This document shows, piece by piece, positions 1 through 5,887 of a stretch of 5,887 nt of DNA. The stretch lies in IMG/VR virus record IMGVR_UViG_3300029609_000116, positions 1 through 5,887 of that record; one strand, 5' to 3'. The notes beneath the pieces are model-generated. The model saw only the letters and a list, made by a program, of their open reading frames with translations. It was not told the origin of the DNA and searched no databases. The stretch comes from a virus. The stretch's first letter is position 1; every line of letters begins with the position of its first letter. Both the position numbers and the translations under genes were made by a program.

Positions 1-594
1 CTTCCCCTCGCTTTCGGCGTATCCTTGGCCTATTCCTTTTGAGGTCCACACCTTGGTGACGAAGTCCGGGTGTTTTTCGTCGATTTTGAATATGTATTTT
101 ATGATGTAATTTACGGTCTTCTCATTCACAAACTCTCCGTAGTCTACAAATCCGTAATTCCATACCTCTTCCACTTCTTCTTTGCTTTTCTCCGTCCACA
201 ATATTCCGTGTAAATGCATTCTTTGCGAGTCGTTTCCGCCTAATTCGCATATCAAAAAATGTTTTATGCCGCACTTGTATTTTTTGTACCACCGTTTCCT
301 GAATAATTCGATGCTTCGACTTGCTACGTTCAAGGCTTCTTCTTGCTCGAATTTTAATAGTGATTCGTCACTGTACGTCATTGTCACGAAGTGTGCGTTT
401 TCGGGATGATTTTTCAATTCGATCATCAGTCTCACTCGCCACTCGTTTGCTCGTTTTTTTCGACACTCGATGCATTTTCCGCATCCGATTGCTACAACCT
501 TTTTTCTCTCGTCGTCGCAATACGGCGTATGTCCGCCGTTTTTCTTGTTCGGCAGATACCTCTTGTTTCTTATTAATCTGGGATATAAACACAT
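1..594 (-). CDS. Replication initiator protein (microvirus VP4 / protein-A-like), N-terminal 165 codons; the ORF continues in frame across the circular junction into 5887..5450
   Basis: Minus-strand ATG at 594-592, then an open frame down to base 100. Because 1-99 = 5789-5887, the same frame runs on through 5887..5450 (checked codon by codon; the ORF track shows only the distal part from an internal GTG). The translation begins MCLYPRLIRNKRYLPNKKNGGHTPYCDDERKKVVAIGCGKCIECRKKRANEW, a Cys cluster typical of microvirus Rep N-termini. FVTMTY at 373-390 resembles rolling-circle motif I. RMHLHGILW at 196-222 is an HxH motif II. NYIIKYIFK carries a YxxKY paired-tyrosine motif III that straddles the repeat boundary (Y at 106-108, K at 97-99, Y at 94-96 = 5882-5884). 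The in-frame TAA at 742-744 is the VP2 stop, so 594 is the first ATG of the frame. Bases 1-99 are a redundant copy of 5789-5887. Confidence 0.88.
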   Translation of the reverse strand, partial: MCLYPRLIRNKRYLPNKKNGGHTPYCDDERKKVVAIGCGKCIECRKKRANEWRVRLMIELKNHPENAHFVTMTYSDESLLKFEQEEALNVASRSIELFRKRWYKKYKCGIKHFLICELGGNDSQRMHLHGILWTEKSKEEVEEVWNYGFVDYGEFVNEKTVNYIIKYIFKIDEKHPDFVTKVWTSKGIGQGYAESEGK

Positions 595-617: not shown

Positions 618-669
618 GGAGCACGGCGGAGGCCGATATAGGCCGGCCGTAAGGCTGATAGGCCGTATG
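618..669. promoter_or_regulatory. GC-rich palindrome / direct-repeat cluster in the VP2-Rep intergenic spacer (candidate origin or Rep control region)
   Basis: cggaggccgatataggccggccgtaaggctgataggccgtatg contains the 8-bp palindrome GGCCGGCC (641-648) and the potential hairpins GGCC-gatata-GGCC and CGGCC-(12 nt)-GGCCG (644-648 / 661-665). The direct repeat ATAGGCCG occurs at 638-645 and 658-665 (20-nt spacing). The region is sharply more GC-rich than its flanks. It lies between the VP2 terminator and the Rep ATG (594). Confidence 0.4.
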
Positions 670-741: not shown

Positions 742-1818
742 TTATTTCGTTAGCCCTCTTGCGCCCGCTGCGGCGCCTACGGTAACTCCGATTGCTTTCA
801 GTATCCGTTCTCCCAGATCCATCCAGAACTTCGGAGTCTTCTCTATCCCGTACTCATATTGCGTTGTCAGCTCCCTCCACGCTTGTTGCGCTCGATTTGT
901 TGCCGCATTTTCGATGGCGGCTAATCCGGAGTTTTTTGCGGCTTCGGCCTGTATTAAGTTGCTTACTGCTTCGATGAATAGATACTTTTTCCGTTCCGTA
1001 TTTAATTCGGCCAAGGCCTTTGAATTTTCACTTTGACCTTTTGCCGCCTCCGATTCCGATAGAGTCTTTATGATCTCTGCCGAATCTTTTCTGGTCGGGA
1101 GTCTTGTCGAGTCGATTCGATGATCTCCGTAGAAATCGTCGTAAACCTCGACGCCCCACCGATCGTTGTCCTCAATGGCCATATCCTCGAACATTTTCCG
1201 TACATTGTCGATGTACTGACTTTTCCCTCGTTGGAATATTTCCTTCACTCTGCCTTCTCTCATCTCTCGCTCCGTTTGAGCTTCCTCGGCCGTCTTTGAC
1301 GCTGACGCCTTGTTTTGTTCGGCCTGACTGTCCAGTACCTCTCCTTGTTTTTTCAGGTTCGCTAAATTCAATCCCAGTTCGATCTGACTGGCTCGCGTAG
1401 CCCATTGCTTGGCCGGCGAATCCGCCTCTCCCGCATTAGCCCCGTGAGCTTGCGCCATAGGACCCTGAGTCATGAATCCGCTGCCTCCTCCGGAGCCGCT
1501 TCCGCCATACATAAGCCCGACTGAAAGTCCGGCTTCTTCCATTTGTTTCCGCATGGCTGCATAGGATTGGTCTTTGTAAGATCTTTCGTATGCCTCCATT
1601 TGCCTTTTAAACGCGTTTTCCGCCGCTTTTTCGCCCCAACGGTAGTTGGACTCGTTCGCAGCCTCGTTTAGCTTAATTTGGTTCTCTAATTGTCTTTTGG
1701 CTCGTTTCCTGTTTCCGATTCCGAATAATCCGAGGATGCCGCCTCCGGCGCTCGCAATTTGACCCGCGGATTGAGCGCCCGCACTTATACCGCCCAGTGT
1801 TGATAAGAGTGCTCCCAT
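742..1818 (-). CDS. Minor capsid / DNA pilot protein (microvirus VP2, phiX174 H-like), 358 aa
   Basis: ORF of 358 aa. The N-terminus MGALLSTLGGISAGAQSAGQIASAGGGILGLFGIGNRKRAKR is Gly/Ala-rich and hydrophobic. It is followed by long Q/A/E/K-rich predicted helical (coiled-coil-like) segments and a second Gly run (GGSGSGGGSG). This is the usual architecture of microvirus pilot proteins. It sits downstream of VP1 as expected. The A-rich leader ...aaaaaaaagtgaaaaATG has no strong SD. Confidence 0.8.
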   Translation of the reverse strand: MGALLSTLGGISAGAQSAGQIASAGGGILGLFGIGNRKRAKRQLENQIKLNEAANESNYRWGEKAAENAFKRQMEAYERSYKDQSYAAMRKQMEEAGLSVGLMYGGSGSGGGSGFMTQGPMAQAHGANAGEADSPAKQWATRASQIELGLNLANLKKQGEVLDSQAEQNKASASKTAEEAQTEREMREGRVKEIFQRGKSQYIDNVRKMFEDMAIEDNDRWGVEVYDDFYGDHRIDSTRLPTRKDSAEIIKTLSESEAAKGQSENSKALAELNTERKKYLFIEAVSNLIQAEAAKNSGLAAIENAATNRAQQAWRELTTQYEYGIEKTPKFWMDLGERILKAIGVTVGAAAGARGLTK

Positions 1819-2284: not shown

Positions 2285-4435
2285 TTACAAATTAGGAATT
2301 TCCCGGGCGCTCTTTACGCGGCGACCGATCACGTCGAATCCGATTTGTATCCAAAAATTTTTCGCGTCCAAATCGGAGTTTGCAAACGCTTTATTGAATA
2401 TTTGCGGATCGATATAGGTTGTGGCATCCTTCAGTTTCGGATCGTTAACCACTTCGTAGACCCTATTGAAGGCCATATACTCTAACGGTTCCCCTGCAGC
2501 GAAATCTCCGTATGTTTCGTTGATCGTAGTAGTGTATTCCGTCCACGCCGGTTGTTTCCCTACGCTAAAGTCCGTTGTCTTGTAATTCGCGCTGATTCCC
2601 CATGCTCGACCGTTCATTTCCTGAGATAAGAGCTCTTGAAATCCGATCTGATCGAGATTAGGTTTGTGGAAATCGTTCATCGTTTGGATTCTTGTCCACC
2701 ATTTGTTGCCTTGCGAGTAGTCTACTCTTGGTACGATTGATCCGAGAATCATGATCAGCGACGGTTCTTCGCAGCGGATTTTAATATTCTTCCCTCCTCT
2801 TTTCGATGTCTCGCGGCCTCTTCCTGCGAGTGATCCGAGTGGTTCCTGTCCGGTGTTTCCGCTTTCGAAGGCTGCCGTACTGACAACCTCGTCGAATACG
2901 ATTTCCGATGCATAACCTCCGACATATATCGGGCTCTCTGCAGCGCGACTCACTCGGACTCCGAACACCGCCTCCTGCCAATCCCTGTATGAACCGCCCG
3001 ATACGGCGATCCGATTAAGCATGTCGTAGACTTTTTTCTGCAAGATAAGCGCATCCATGGTGAGCACTCCGCTTGTCACGTCGACCGAGGTTATTTCGTT
3101 GATGCCGTTCGTTCCGTCTATCCACTCGGTATTCAGCCAATTGTTGAAACGGTCGGATAGGTACGTCCGGATTCCCAATCCGCACTGAGATGTGGTTCTC
3201 CCGTAGATCTGGACTCCGCTTTGAGTCTTGAGTGTATCGTACAGCGGAGCCAAGAACGGGTATTTTGTCGCACTCGCAGTGGAACTCGGTAGTATGAACT
3301 CTTCTTGTGACGGTGTCGCTAGAATTTCTTCTTTGAGATTGTCTATCGTGTTCAGATCGAATTTTTGCAGCTGAATGTCGTTTTTCGTGTTGAAACCGGT
3401 GATTTTATCGATTTCTTTGTTTTCATCGATAATTACTGGAGTTTTACCTGCCGTGCTTGGTATGGCATATTGATTCGCCGGAATACTGAATGTGAATCTT
3501 ACGGTCTTTCTATTGACTTGGCTGATCTCGTTTGCTTTTGAGAGTTCTCTGCTTAGAGGAGTTGCCGTACTGTTGATGGCCGGCAGTTTGAGATAGACGT
3601 TCTTGCCGATCTTTTCGGCATCTGCCGCCCCTGAGAATTGAATTTGGACGGATAGGCTTGTGCCCGTAATGGGTATTTTCTCGGTAACATTGAGTACTGT
3701 GCCCTGATTTGAGATCGGGTTTTGCGCCGACGCGTTGTAGATGATCACTCCGTTGCTCAATTTCGGACTGGGCCCGATAACGAATCCGATTTCTTCTTGT
3801 TTGTTGGCGTAATAGTTTTTATAGATGTCCCAGTATGCCAATTCGAAGAGAGCCTGCCTTTTGATATGCAGTTCGGCATTGGTCGCGTTGATAGGTAGTC
3901 CTCTTTTCCCGAGATATGCGGGAAGTGAAGACGGATTGTAGTTATTTGCGTTTTTGATGAGATACTCGTCGATTTTTTCATTCCCGACATAACTTTCCCT
4001 AGTTACCGGTTCCCATAGTTTCGGCAGCTTGATATTGGCCATTTTCAGTCCTACGCCCAGCGCATTGTTGTGAAGCGCCGACATGTATAGTCGTATGGGC
4101 ACGCAGAATACGTCCACTTGGAATTTTGCCGATCCGAATATCGGTCCGTTGGTAGGTAATGTTCGAATGATCGATTCGATCTCGTTGATGTAGAATGTGT
4201 CGCCTGTCAGTCCTATTTCGCAGTAGTAAGGTACGACTGTTGCGAAAGATTGATCGGTTCTTACGATTTTCGACAGGTTATTTGAACTTCGGCCGAAATT
4301 TTCGAGTTCCACGGCCATTTTTTTTCCGGCGCCCAGTCGTTCGCCTCCGAGGGTCTTTTTCATTTCTTTTCGCTTTTTTGTTTTTTGATGATATGTGTTG
4401 TGATTAACGATACTGTAACCAATAGGTCGTTCCAT
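2285..4435 (-). CDS. Major capsid protein (microvirus VP1 / phiX174 F-like); 716 aa from the first ATG, probable true start at ATG 4363 (692 aa)
   Basis: The long minus ORF contains the conserved microvirus MCP N-terminal block ...FGRSSNNLSKIVRTDQSFATVVPYYCEIGLTGDTFYINEIESIIRTLPTNGPIFGSAKFQVDVFCVPIRLYMSALHNNALGVGL. This corresponds to the RSxFDLS...LPGDTF...D.F.VP.R..W pattern of F/VP1 jelly-roll capsid proteins. The length is in the range of large-MCP lineages such as Alpavirinae. There are three in-frame ATGs, at 4435, 4363 and 4318. ATG 4363 overlaps the TGA of the upstream ORF as ATGA and follows an A-rich leader (caaaaaacaaaaaagcgaaaagaa), so I favour it. Confidence 0.92.
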   Translation of the reverse strand: MERPIGYSIVNHNTYHQKTKKRKEMKKTLGGERLGAGKKMAVELENFGRSSNNLSKIVRTDQSFATVVPYYCEIGLTGDTFYINEIESIIRTLPTNGPIFGSAKFQVDVFCVPIRLYMSALHNNALGVGLKMANIKLPKLWEPVTRESYVGNEKIDEYLIKNANNYNPSSLPAYLGKRGLPINATNAELHIKRQALFELAYWDIYKNYYANKQEEIGFVIGPSPKLSNGVIIYNASAQNPISNQGTVLNVTEKIPITGTSLSVQIQFSGAADAEKIGKNVYLKLPAINSTATPLSRELSKANEISQVNRKTVRFTFSIPANQYAIPSTAGKTPVIIDENKEIDKITGFNTKNDIQLQKFDLNTIDNLKEEILATPSQEEFILPSSTASATKYPFLAPLYDTLKTQSGVQIYGRTTSQCGLGIRTYLSDRFNNWLNTEWIDGTNGINEITSVDVTSGVLTMDALILQKKVYDMLNRIAVSGGSYRDWQEAVFGVRVSRAAESPIYVGGYASEIVFDEVVSTAAFESGNTGQEPLGSLAGRGRETSKRGGKNIKIRCEEPSLIMILGSIVPRVDYSQGNKWWTRIQTMNDFHKPNLDQIGFQELLSQEMNGRAWGISANYKTTDFSVGKQPAWTEYTTTINETYGDFAAGEPLEYMAFNRVYEVVNDPKLKDATTYIDPQIFNKAFANSDLDAKNFWIQIGFDVIGRRVKSAREIPNL

Positions 4436-4668
4436 GTCATATTTTCGGGTTTACAGTATTCTCTGGCTTCCTCTTTTGTCTGAAAGGTTCGGTTCGATAT
4501 GCGATTTTTCCCTACGGTCACAACGTATCCTTGTTCTTTGTTGCCGAGGATTGAAAACGGCGACTCTTCTATTCGCTCGCATTCGATGACATCCGTTTGG
4601 TCTTTCGGCGATAGTGAGATGGTTTCTCTTTTCATGTCTTCATTTTTTAATGGTTCCGACTTGTTCAT
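4360..4668 (-). CDS. Hypothetical protein, 102 aa (91 aa if started at the internal ATG 4635)
   Basis: Minus ORF MNKSEPLKNEDMKRETISLSPKDQTDVIECERIEESPFSILGNKEQGYVVTVGKNRISNRTFQTKEEAREYCKPENMTWNDLLVTVSLITTHIIKKQKSEKK. Its TGA (4362-4360) overlaps the VP1 ATG 4363 as ATGA. The ATG at 4668 overlaps the preceding ORF by 29 nt. The alternative ATG at 4635 lies 4 nt after that ORF's stop. It belongs to the same-strand tiled gene array. Confidence 0.5.
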   Translation of the reverse strand: MNKSEPLKNEDMKRETISLSPKDQTDVIECERIEESPFSILGNKEQGYVVTVGKNRISNRTFQTKEEAREYCKPENMTWNDLLVTVSLITTHIIKKQKSEKK

Positions 4669-4855
4669 AGGTGATTTTCGTTACAACGGTGTCTCCGTTT
4701 TTAAACGTCGACGCCGACTGACTCACGAATTGTTTGGCGTTGCAACTCGTAAGTAACACGATTGCTGTTGCACAGATGACTGCGACGATCGCAACGATCG
4801 TTTTGTTCTTCCCCCAGCCGGTTGACTGAAGGAAGTTTTCGTTTTGCTTACTCAT
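4640..4855 (-). CDS. Small predicted lipoprotein / membrane protein (about 71 aa): signal peptide with lipobox LLTSC, then a 33-aa mature peptide
   Basis: From ATG 4855-4853: MSKQNENFLQSTGWGKNKTIVAIVAVICATAIVLLTSC NAKQFVSQSASTFKNGDTVVTKITYEQVGTIKK. The N-region carries Lys residues, the h-region is 17 hydrophobic residues, and then L-T-S-C fits the [LVI][ASTVI][GAS]C lipobox. The ATG overlaps the TGA (4854-4852) of the upstream 70-aa ORF as ATGA. The ORF track extends this frame to ATG 4993 (117 aa), but the extra 46 residues (MSRFEQCRLQNRVGFHREESRPSGPNTRIHRSCDQKIRCAIKSISN) look like low-complexity off-frame translation. Confidence 0.55.
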   Translation of the reverse strand: MSKQNENFLQSTGWGKNKTIVAIVAVICATAIVLLTSCNAKQFVSQSASTFKNGDTVVTKITYEQVGTIKK

Positions 4856-5064
4856 GTTTGAAATAGATTTAATTGCACACCGTATTTTCTGATCACACGA
4901 ACGGTGTATACGTGTGTTTGGCCCTGATGGTCGACTTTCTTCTCGGTGGAAACCGACACGGTTTTGTAGACGGCATTGTTCAAATCTTGACAAGTCTGAA
5001 CTACTCCGTCTTCGTCAATTACCGTTTGCCTGTGGTAGATCGTTCTGCTCTGTGAACATTCCAT
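4852..5064 (-). CDS. Hypothetical protein, 70 aa
   Basis: Minus ORF MECSQSRTIYHRQTVIDEDGVVQTCQDLNNAVYKTVSVSTEKKVDHQGQTHVYTVRVIRKYGVQLNLFQT with a true ATG at 5064-5062. Its stop is ATGA-coupled to the lipoprotein ORF. The composition is protein-like and alternates hydrophobic and polar residues. It overlaps the preceding 60-aa ORF by 50 nt in another frame. Confidence 0.42.
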   Translation of the reverse strand: MECSQSRTIYHRQTVIDEDGVVQTCQDLNNAVYKTVSVSTEKKVDHQGQTHVYTVRVIRKYGVQLNLFQT

Positions 5065-5449: not shown

Positions 5450-5887
5450 TTAAGATTGTGACTCAAATATATTTTTATTATTTAATTTTTCCAAATTTTT
5501 CTTATAGGATTTTTTTATCCAAACATCGGAACTATAACCTAAAGATTCCGTTCTCTCTTGATGATATTTTAAACACCCGAAATACAATCGCATGCCTTTT
5601 TCATCCGATATATCGATTTTCTCCCCGCACACATATCTTTTTTTCTGATCGAGTTTTTGTAACCACAGCTCCTCCCGTTGGTCCTCGTCGAATATCTTGT
5701 TTCGGAGGTAAATCGGTAAGGCTACTTTCAGTCCGGATGGCATTTTGTAGTAATCTTTTGTTGAAATTCCTCTGAATTTATTAAAACACTTCCCCTCGCT
5801 TTCGGCGTATCCTTGGCCTATTCCTTTTGAGGTCCACACCTTGGTGACGAAGTCCGGGTGTTTTTCGTCGATTTTGAATATGTATTT
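5450..5887 (-). CDS. Replication initiator protein (VP4 / protein-A-like), C-terminal 145 aa; same gene as feature 1..594, joined across the circular junction
   Basis: The minus frame is open from the window end through to the TAA at 5452-5450. Translation reads ...KYIFKIDEKHPDFVTKVWTSKGIGQGYAESEGKCFNKFRGISTKDYYKMPSGLKVALPIYLRNKIFDEDQREELWLQKLDQKKRYVCGEKIDISDEKGMRLYFGCLKYHQERTESLGYSSDVWIKKSYKKNLEKLNNKNIFESQS. The frame is exactly contiguous with codon 100-102 of the window start. The whole Rep is about 310 aa. Confidence 0.88.
   Translation of the reverse strand, partial: KYIFKIDEKHPDFVTKVWTSKGIGQGYAESEGKCFNKFRGISTKDYYKMPSGLKVALPIYLRNKIFDEDQREELWLQKLDQKKRYVCGEKIDISDEKGMRLYFGCLKYHQERTESLGYSSDVWIKKSYKKNLEKLNNKNIFESQS
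5789..5887. repeat. 99-nt exact terminal redundancy (copy of bases 1-99): circular genome closure / assembly overlap
   Basis: The base-by-base comparison is identical: cttcccctcgctttcggcgtatccttggcctattccttttgaggtccacaccttggtgacgaagtccgggtgtttttcgtcgattttgaatatgtattt occurs at 1-99 and at 5789-5887. The unit genome is therefore 5,788 nt. The repeat falls inside the Rep coding sequence, so it is not a biological LTR or att site. Confidence 0.9.

Follow-up and report, generated by a model that had tools for sequence, protein, structure and literature searches.

The spacer between the VP2 and Rep genes of this microvirus carries a structured and conserved cassette that has been exchanged between otherwise unrelated microviruses. 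The hairpins of the cassette have loops of the DNA type, and their pairing is under selection on the + strand of the window, that is, of the whole stretch of 5,887 nt that was analysed. Of the explanations considered, the likeliest is that the cassette is a host-dependent single-strand initiation signal (a complementary-strand origin), which would act as folded single-stranded DNA on the + strand. This proposal, drawn from the sequence and from analogy with known origins, is a tentative one, and we give it somewhat less than an even chance. Its use as single-stranded DNA rather than RNA, the host enzyme as its partner and the priming of DNA synthesis are what we infer from the observations described below.

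The window is a circular microvirus genome of 5788 nt, of which bases 1-99 recur at positions 5789-5887. Dulem virus 222 from lemur faeces (PP511398; L001) shares 87.7% identity with it, and the proteins of one metagenome contig (L269) are identical to those of the window. All genes of the window are on the minus strand, among them the following:

1 to 594, minus strand: the 5' part of the Rep gene, with its ATG at 594-592; the gene wraps around to end at 5450, its translation starts MCLYPR, and it matches Pfam REP_ORF2-G2P (E = 2e-13)
742 to 1818, minus strand: the VP2 (DNA pilot protein) gene, from the list of open reading frames, with its stop codon at 742-744; Dulem virus 222 has a homologue that carries the annotation DNA pilot protein
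2280 to 1954, minus strand: an open reading frame of 108 aa
4435 to 2285, minus strand: the VP1 gene, identified by Pfam Phage_F

The positions of the VP2 stop codon and of the Rep ATG place the GC-rich cluster of palindromes and repeats within a spacer of 147 nt, and its location between the end of VP2 and the start of Rep, as given in a preliminary description of the sequence, is thus borne out. The genes of both groups of phages that carry the cassette (groups A and B, see below) have no Shine-Dalgarno sequences, and the host is therefore probably not an enterobacterium. A Bacteroidota-type host would fit genes of this kind.

The cassette occupies about 130 nt here (window ~590-725) and up to ~230 nt in relatives. 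Its parts follow one another in the order P0, P1, P2, A-rich linker, P3 and TATAAT-like box:

594 to 604, + strand: mini-hairpin P0, TGTC-GAA-GACA, a GAA triloop closed by a C-G pair, read directly from the sequence
611 to 617 with 631 to 637, + strand: the 7-bp stem of P1, ATCGGTC paired with GGCCGAT, supported by covariation
618 to 630, + strand: the conserved 13-nt loop of P1, GGAGCACGGCGGA, defined by the alignment
641 to 664, + strand: nested hairpin P2, which contains both ATAGGCCG repeats and the GGCCGGCC palindrome
641 to 644 with 661 to 664, + strand: the outer stem of P2, GGCC paired with GGCC, from energy prediction
645 to 648 with 653 to 656, + strand: the inner stem of P2, GGCC paired with GGCT, from energy prediction
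649 to 652 and 657 to 660, + strand: the GTAA loop and the GATA bulge of P2, from the sequence
665 to 685, + strand: the A-rich linker, GTATGAAAAACCTTAATAAAA, which on the coding strand is a T-run after P3
686 to 713, + strand: hairpin P3, 13 bp, AGGAGGATTGGGC / GCCCTTTCCTCCT, an inverted repeat present in every fold predicted
714 to 725, + strand: the right edge of the cassette with the TATAAT-like box (TATAAG at 716-721), defined by conservation

P0 was found by a scan for mini-hairpins and is also present in the minimum-energy DNA fold. Its first base pairs with the A of the Rep ATG on the opposite strand. The middle pair of P0 covaries, being T-A in the lineage of the window and C-G in the other lineage, and it is broken in none of the first 15 sequences. 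Seven of the eight P2 pairs never vary, and the eighth has one G·T change; the P2 loop is GTAA, GTGA or GTTA, with no other variant seen. Because the pairs of P2 do not vary, it is the energy prediction on which their pairing is based. The invariance of P2 beside the freely covarying P1 suggests that P2 may be recognized in a sequence-specific manner.

P3 occurs elsewhere in five unrelated sequence versions, each of which forms a hairpin of 10-13 bp at the same place, and the A-tract on its 5' side is present in every variant. On the minus strand P3 is followed by TTTTTATT, and by eye this arrangement resembles an intrinsic terminator positioned after VP2. The hairpin together with its T-run (coding strand, 713-686) was missed by the consensus terminator scan, and in the second lineage the T-run beside P3 falls on the antisense strand. 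The box that directly follows P3 reads TATAAT, TATAAG or TATATA in most copies and TATTTC in L007 and L011. The BLAST similarity between the two lineages stops at 718-724 on the right side and exactly at the Rep ATG on the left side.

The cluster of the GGCC palindrome and the direct repeats is real. ATAGGCCG has exactly two copies in the window, at 638-645 and 658-665 with a spacing of 20 nt, where 0.17 would be expected by chance (two copies were reached in 4 of 200 shuffles). GGCCGGCC has a single copy, at 641-648, where 0.04 would be expected, and the GC content reaches its maximum of 0.60 near 600-659 between flanks of ~0.35-0.48. The repeats had initially been placed about one base away from these positions. 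The extent first assigned to the cluster, 618-669, covers the P1 loop, the 3' arm of P1 and P2 and falls short of the whole element. The spacer might have turned out to be hypervariable among close relatives, which was mentioned at the outset as an argument against its function, but it is conserved more than the flanking genes: the window and L004 are ~91% identical in the spacer and 63-68% identical in VP1 and Rep, and even viruses with a Rep of merely 22-34% identity retain 75-90% identity here.

The two copies of ATAGGCCG form the 5' arm and the 3' arm of the outer stem of P2 and are not iterons, as had been proposed. They are merely two, of 8 nt each, and the second is not maintained as a repeat in 7 of 15 variants, in which it reads ATCGGCCG or AGAGGCCG, with the pairing GGCC tetramers being invariant. 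Iterons in the sense of at least three direct repeats of ~17-22 bp, conserved as repeats, were not found in the element. The idea of a promoter or operator of Rep fails in the second lineage, where the element is located ~2.5 kb from the Rep start and has the opposite orientation with respect to the genes. The nick site that had been envisaged is not supported by a phiX174-like motif, as none is present above chance; sequences of the CTTG/ATATTAAT type gave 6 matches at 3 mismatches against 6.5 expected, none of them in the conserved core. What stands of the suggested replication origin is a cis element with a structure such as one would expect at origins, and what does not stand are its iteron and operator mechanisms. 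The feature singled out in the preliminary description is nevertheless real, non-random and functional, and its interpretation as a replication-related cis element was a reasonable guess.

Distant BLAST searches with the spacer as the query matched Dulem virus 222 and, unexpectedly, Dulem virus 210. The latter is an otherwise unrelated microvirus, and the match is located in a non-coding stretch of its genome. Overall, ~40 copies of the cassette were found in phage records, IMG/VR contigs and metagenomes, all of them in two microvirus lineages. The same core was found by pattern scans in 15-16 IMG/VR contigs and in 23 metagenome contigs, several of which are from the human gut. Two genomic contexts cover all 23 metagenome copies, and no third context was seen. 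In group A (the window, Dulem virus 222, L004, L008, L015, L017 and 8 metagenome contigs), the element is found between VP2 and Rep and is antisense to the genes. In group B (Dulem virus 210 and ~25 contigs), it is found in the sense orientation just 3' of a gene for 103-112 aa that follows VP1, and it overlaps the stop codon of that gene. The proteins of group B are 22-34% (Rep) and ~21-30% (VP1) identical to those of the window. In whole-genome BLAST comparisons, the element is 74-90% identical between the groups over 91-228 nt, and it is the sole segment that is more than 75% identical between the two lineages. Other than the element, these comparisons gave one weak match, which falls within a small membrane-protein gene and is colinear with the genes.

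A putative membrane protein of 117 aa (window 4640-4993, minus strand) is the only protein clearly common to both lineages. The similarity concerns its C-terminal half (...ITYEQVGTIKK), which has 40-55% identity to L007 1412-1603 and to other group B loci. The shared gene sits at different genomic positions in group A and group B.

The cassette is a mosaic. The window, L015 and L017 have the same P3 as L007 and L011, which belong to group B, and the P3 of L001 and L004 is different. L015 and L017 have a further ~100 nt in common with L007 and L011. The mosaic P3 and the shared flank indicate that the cassette was exchanged between the lineages, probably more than once. The lineages exchanging the cassette presumably encounter each other in a shared host. 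Searched with a covariance model of P0-P2, ~75 other microvirus genomes, among them phiX174, Chp2, SpV4, phiMH2K and the closest relatives of each group, yielded no copy of the cassette. In relatives of the second lineage the same locus is present without the cassette. Such a patchy presence over divergent Reps fits a signal recognized by the host better than a signal specific to Rep.

Group B genomes have a second conserved non-coding block downstream of the cassette, CCTTTACTTGACATTATATGATATGTGCGCGG ... CCGCGCA, which has a long-range stem (L005 ~4320-4400; L002 ~2250-2300). This block is also found after the p107 homologue in L080, L082, L083, L088 and L089. Since it is present in relatives that have no cassette, the cassette looks like an insertion beside an older element. 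A scan of bacterial contigs with a loose pattern, which gives chance matches in high-GC genomes, produced no true copy among the first 120 matches listed. A P2-like hairpin, GGCCGGCC-GCAA-GGCT-GTT-GGCC followed by GTAAAA, is located upstream of a gene in L224, a Bacillota MAG from goat caecum (minus strand, ~5604 nt from the start of the reverse-complemented locus), and may be there by chance.

The following observations demonstrate that the fold of the cassette is under selection. Compensatory double changes are found at five of the seven pairs of P1 and at one of the three pairs of P0. In the first 15 sequences the pairing is 100%, with no broken pair, and it falls to 11-40% in the control in which the partner columns are slid. 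The observed covariation was reached by none of 500 shuffles. An independent set of 20 distinct metagenome sequences gave ~99.3-99.4% pairing and 7 covarying pairs. In 34 distinct sequences taken together, 552 pairs are Watson-Crick and 39 are G·T; A·C pairs and all other mismatches are absent. Of the G·T changes, three independent ones occurred within group A. The T616·G632 pair in P1 of the window is a wobble on the + strand only, and P2 holds an invariant G·T pair, which is an A·C mismatch on the opposite strand. The presence of 39 G·T and no A·C pairs shows that the fold is selected on the + strand of the window. As this is not the mRNA strand in group A, an mRNA-level role shared by the two groups, such as that of a Rep leader or operator, is excluded.

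The DNA folds of the + strand are equal to or slightly better than those of the minus strand. In the minimum-energy DNA fold of the window a pairing alternative to P1 is preferred, and the z-score of -1.8 is weak; the RNA fold of the spacer has z = -3.1. Taken together, this non-coding region contains stable intra-strand hairpins, of which P0, P1 and P3 are supported by covariation or replacement and P2 by energy.

The loops of P0 and of the inner stem of P2 follow the rule for Hirao-type DNA mini-hairpins, C-GNA-G or C-GNNA-G. The loop is C-GAA-G in P0 and C-GTAA-G, C-GTGA-G or, in L099, C-GTTA-G in the inner stem of P2. Hairpins flanking these in other copies of the cassette (GTCTTC-GCA/GGA/GAA-GAAGAC, AGCC-GAA-GGCT, TGTC-GTA-GACA, GCCC-GAA-GGGC and CGCC-GCA-GGCG) are on the same strand, and all four values of N occur among the loops. 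The mini-hairpins number 3-5 per ~250 nt, always on one strand, where ~1.4 would be expected per whole genome strand. In the window, the strand-specific mini-hairpins of the GCGNNAGC / GCGNAGC class are TGTC-GAA-GACA and GCC-GTAA-GGC. Mini-hairpins are found at primase-dependent complementary-strand origins, where they are GCGAAAGC in G4 and GCGTTAGC in St-1 and alpha3, and the ssiA of RSF1010 holds the mini-hairpin CCGAAGG (PMC13037366). According to the same review, C-GNA-G and C-GNNA-G mini-hairpins are reported to resist binding of SSB (PMC13037366). As a positive control, the scan recovers GGCGTTAGCC in the G-H spacer of alpha3, which is the home of its GCGTTAGC motif.

A non-homologous cluster of five GNA mini-hairpins is found in the VP2-Rep spacer of L020 (~500-750) and L072 (~2400-2765), the Reps of which are ~50% identical to that of the window. 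The hairpins, which were located by the mini-hairpin scan on the strand antisense to the genes, are GCTGCC-GTA-GGCAGC, GCC-GTA-GGC, GCC-GCA-GGC, CCGCC-GAA-GGCGG and GCGC-GAA-GCGC. In other microvirus clades, conserved covarying intergenic hairpins have been proposed to be complementary (negative)-strand origins (PMC9865509).

If the cassette is a single-strand initiation signal, its mode of action might be as follows. The stable hairpins would stay free of SSB. The invariant core, which consists of P2 and the conserved P1 loop, would be presented to primase or RNA polymerase of the host as the priming enzyme. This enzyme would then start the conversion of the circular single-stranded DNA into the double-stranded replicative form. 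Such a signal would account for the selection on structure, for the strand specificity, for the independence of phage proteins and gene context, and for the patchy modular distribution. The patchy, inverted and context-free distribution matches the cassette-like exchange known for single-strand origins. Several observations count against the proposal. The covariance search of phiX174, Chp2, SpV4 and phiMH2K revealed no homology to any characterised origin. P1 is disfavoured in the minimum-energy DNA fold of the window, and the pairing of P2, whose sequence is invariant, is a prediction from energy. The switch in orientation between the groups is effectively one evolutionary event. The T-run that follows P3 on the opposite strand is unexplained by simple primase models; that P3 is copied into a hairpin-ended primer is a speculation, and so is the idea that it doubles as the VP2 terminator in group A.

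The element might alternatively be the viral-strand origin of rolling-circle replication, with Rep nicking the P2 core or the P1 loop, possibly after a cruciform has been extruded from the supercoiled replicative form, or it might be a cassette that combines both origins. In the lineage of the window the element adjoins Rep, and HUH-Rep origins typically have a hairpin whose loop is conserved. A nick site would, moreover, set the strand to be displaced, which would explain why the sense strand of the element is T-rich in both lineages, and the transfer of a cassette with two origins would flip the polarity in one step. However, a nick origin is needed by every microvirus, and the ~75 sampled relatives do without the element, including those of the second lineage that keep the locus. 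The lineages that share it have divergent Reps (22-34% identity), in the second lineage the element is ~2.5 kb away from the Rep start, and no CTTGATA motif like that of phiX174 or pC194 is present above chance. A nick origin is the main rival of the initiation signal, but we regard it as unlikely. The patchy distribution, the mosaic P3 and the inverted insertion would also be consistent with a hotspot of recombination or with a selfish passenger that is of no use to the phage. We consider this explanation highly improbable, given that compensatory substitutions continue within each lineage, that the element is better conserved than the genes on either side, and that no terminal inverted repeats or target duplications were seen.

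Two further explanations invoke RNA. At the mRNA level, P3 on the coding strand would be the terminator of VP2, and the GGCC hairpins would be the 5' UTR or the operator of Rep, as the cluster was originally viewed. This would agree with the run of TTTTTATT after P3, with the RNA fold of the spacer (z-score given above) and with the complement of P0, which sequesters the first base of the Rep ATG. It would not agree with the other lineage, in which the element is inverted and far from Rep and the T-run is antisense, nor with the non-Watson-Crick pairs, all of which would be A·C in the mRNA, also within group A. As consensus scans for promoter-like and terminator-like sequences remained at chance level too, an mRNA signal is improbable. 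The fold on the + strand would also suit a self-contained non-coding RNA of + orientation, which would be antisense to the Rep start in group A and would belong to the 3' region of an mRNA in group B. In rolling-circle plasmids, rep genes are classically controlled by countertranscripts, and in an RNA the loops GTAA and GTGA would count as GNRA tetraloops. There is little probability in this explanation, as an Rfam search of 500-2100 gave no match in 590-725 at E values up to 10, no U-tract follows P3 in the + orientation, and a role antisense to Rep cannot hold in the second lineage. The shared cassette, furthermore, has no promoter, because the similarity ends exactly at the Rep ATG. The GTTA loop and the GNA triloops with any N fit the rule for DNA mini-hairpins better than RNA motifs (PMC13037366).

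The single-strand initiation signal has a consequence for the polarity of the phage. A function as single-stranded DNA in group A means that the + strand, which is antisense to every gene, must be displaced and packaged. We know of no precedent among the Microviridae for packaging of the gene-antisense strand. The lineage of the window, and perhaps part of the large clade with A-rich coding strands, might nonetheless be negative-sense microviruses that package this strand, although we doubt it. In that case, which is to be viewed with the same reserve, the cassette would mark the virion strand.

On the coding strand, the AT skew at 4-fold sites ranges from +0.36 to +0.48 in group A and from -0.45 to -0.66 in group B, with values of -0.64 for phiX174, -0.42 for SpV4, -0.37 for Chp2 and +0.31 for phiMH2K. 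The element-sense strand is the T-rich strand in group A as well as in group B. A-rich coding strands are found throughout the VP1 clade to which the window belongs (~60 sampled genomes). When 59 genomes were compared after de-duplication, both clades showed a relative enrichment of mini-hairpins on the T-rich strand (binomial p = 0.0013 and 0.0058), and clusters of at least three mini-hairpins are on the T-rich strand in 5 of 6 independent cases. Support for a negative-sense phage is thus given by the antisense fold, by the T-rich sense strand in both groups, by the antisense cluster of L020 and L072 and by the enrichment in the 59 genomes. A counterexample is phiMH2K, which has a positive skew and yet carries its intergenic mini-hairpins on the coding strand. 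It follows that skew alone proves nothing and cannot be relied on to tell which strand is packaged. Polarised substitution spectra (C>T versus G>A at 4-fold sites) have the predicted direction, with counts that are too small. A search of the literature on strand polarity or skew of microviruses found none. If true, negative-sense packaging could disprove the view that Microviridae are positive-sense without exception.

Two clades can be distinguished among the sampled microviruses, a large one with strongly A-rich coding strands (L019-L079, with a 4-fold AT skew of up to +0.9) and a T-rich one (L080-L093). The T-rich clade resembles phiX174, Chp2 and SpV4, and the cultured phiMH2K falls with the A-rich clade (references L094-L097). 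On the coding strand of the Vp3-Vp5 spacer of phiMH2K (L094, 2982-2995) there is a strong G4-like mini-hairpin, GCGTC-GAAA-GACGC, which may be regarded as a candidate complementary-strand origin of this cultured gokushovirus.

Two reading frames that run over the element were considered and rejected. An N-terminal extension of Rep is contradicted by the compensatory changes in the stems, which alter its residues, and by the conserved start MC(L/T)xP. The frame upstream of Rep is open in the window but has no ATG there; L001 and L004 have an upstream ATG. The deposited Rep CDS starts 41 codons before the conserved MCLYP in L001 (2028-2150) and also in L004 (1662-1784). The Rep annotation of Dulem virus 222 is probably 41 codons too long and spans the whole structured element. 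An open reading frame on the + strand that ends ...IGRP* at the GTAA/GTGA loop was rejected as a by-product. It is shared over the last ~17 residues only, and in L002-type copies it is broken by an insertion of 1 nt in the loop.

The spacer at 1819-1953, which lies between the 108-aa open reading frame and VP2, is also structured. It is 95% identical over group A, even in L004, the VP1 of which is only 63% identical. It contains a perfect 9-bp G/C hairpin at 1903-1923, a small hairpin with the arms CAAGA...TCTTG, and a covarying outer stem, in which GTGAAC/GTTCAC is replaced by GTGAGC/GCTCAC in L004. A T9A8 tract immediately precedes the VP2 ATG. This spacer could hold a promoter, a terminator or the viral-strand origin.

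Structured cassettes of the single-strand origin type were known already, and what is unusual here is the cross-lineage, inverted distribution. To our knowledge, complementary-strand origins have been established experimentally for only a few microviruses, all of them enterobacterial. The element is a concrete candidate for a cis replication signal of the gut-associated uncultured majority of microviruses, and this candidate has a defined structure, an invariant core of 30 nt and natural compensatory variants. That the lineages have exchanged it suggests that they co-infect a common host and that origins are swappable modules like those of rolling-circle plasmids.

The element can be compared with several known systems. 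The viral-strand origin of phiX174 (the gpA nick site in gene A) is likewise a Rep-associated cis-acting replication signal. Unlike the element, it is located inside the Rep gene, is AT-rich and does not require a hairpin, and its CAACTTGATATTAATAAC motif is not above chance here. The n' (PriA) site of phiX174 and the hairpins of the reekeekee- and roodoodooviruses (PMC9865509) are, like those of the element, conserved intergenic hairpins with compensatory substitutions, and a role in starting negative-strand synthesis of Microviridae has been proposed or shown for them. They differ from the element in sequence and architecture and in being on the coding (virion) strand, and cross-lineage sharing in inverted orientation has not been reported for the reekeekee- and roodoodoovirus hairpins.

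The oric regions of G4, St-1 and alpha3 are similar to the element in that they occupy a non-coding microvirus spacer and contain several stable hairpins and C-GNNA-G or C-GNA-G motifs on one strand. St-1 and alpha3 have GCGTTAGC, and the copy of the element in L099 has CCGTTAGG. There is no sequence homology, however, and the spacer is F-G or G-H in those phages and VP2-Rep here, where the element is antisense. The G4, St-1 and alpha3 origins are primase-dependent; priming at the element is a prediction.

The ssoA, ssoU, ssoT and ssoW of plasmids and the ssiA and ssiB of RSF1010 are, like the element, folded single-stranded DNA modules of ~130-200 nt that are specific for strand and orientation and depend on host enzymes. 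The resemblance to ssoA does not extend to its conserved sequences: the only match to CS-6 (TAGCGT) in the window is at 2562-2567, inside VP1, the P1 loop being GGAGCACGGCGGA; the loop variants TAGCGC or TAGCAC of other copies match at merely 4-5 of the 6 positions, and no RSB-like sequence was identified. The CCGAAGG of RSF1010 ssiA is the same mini-hairpin as P0 of the second lineage. As with the cassette described here, the sso and ssi modules are swapped between replicons independently of Rep.
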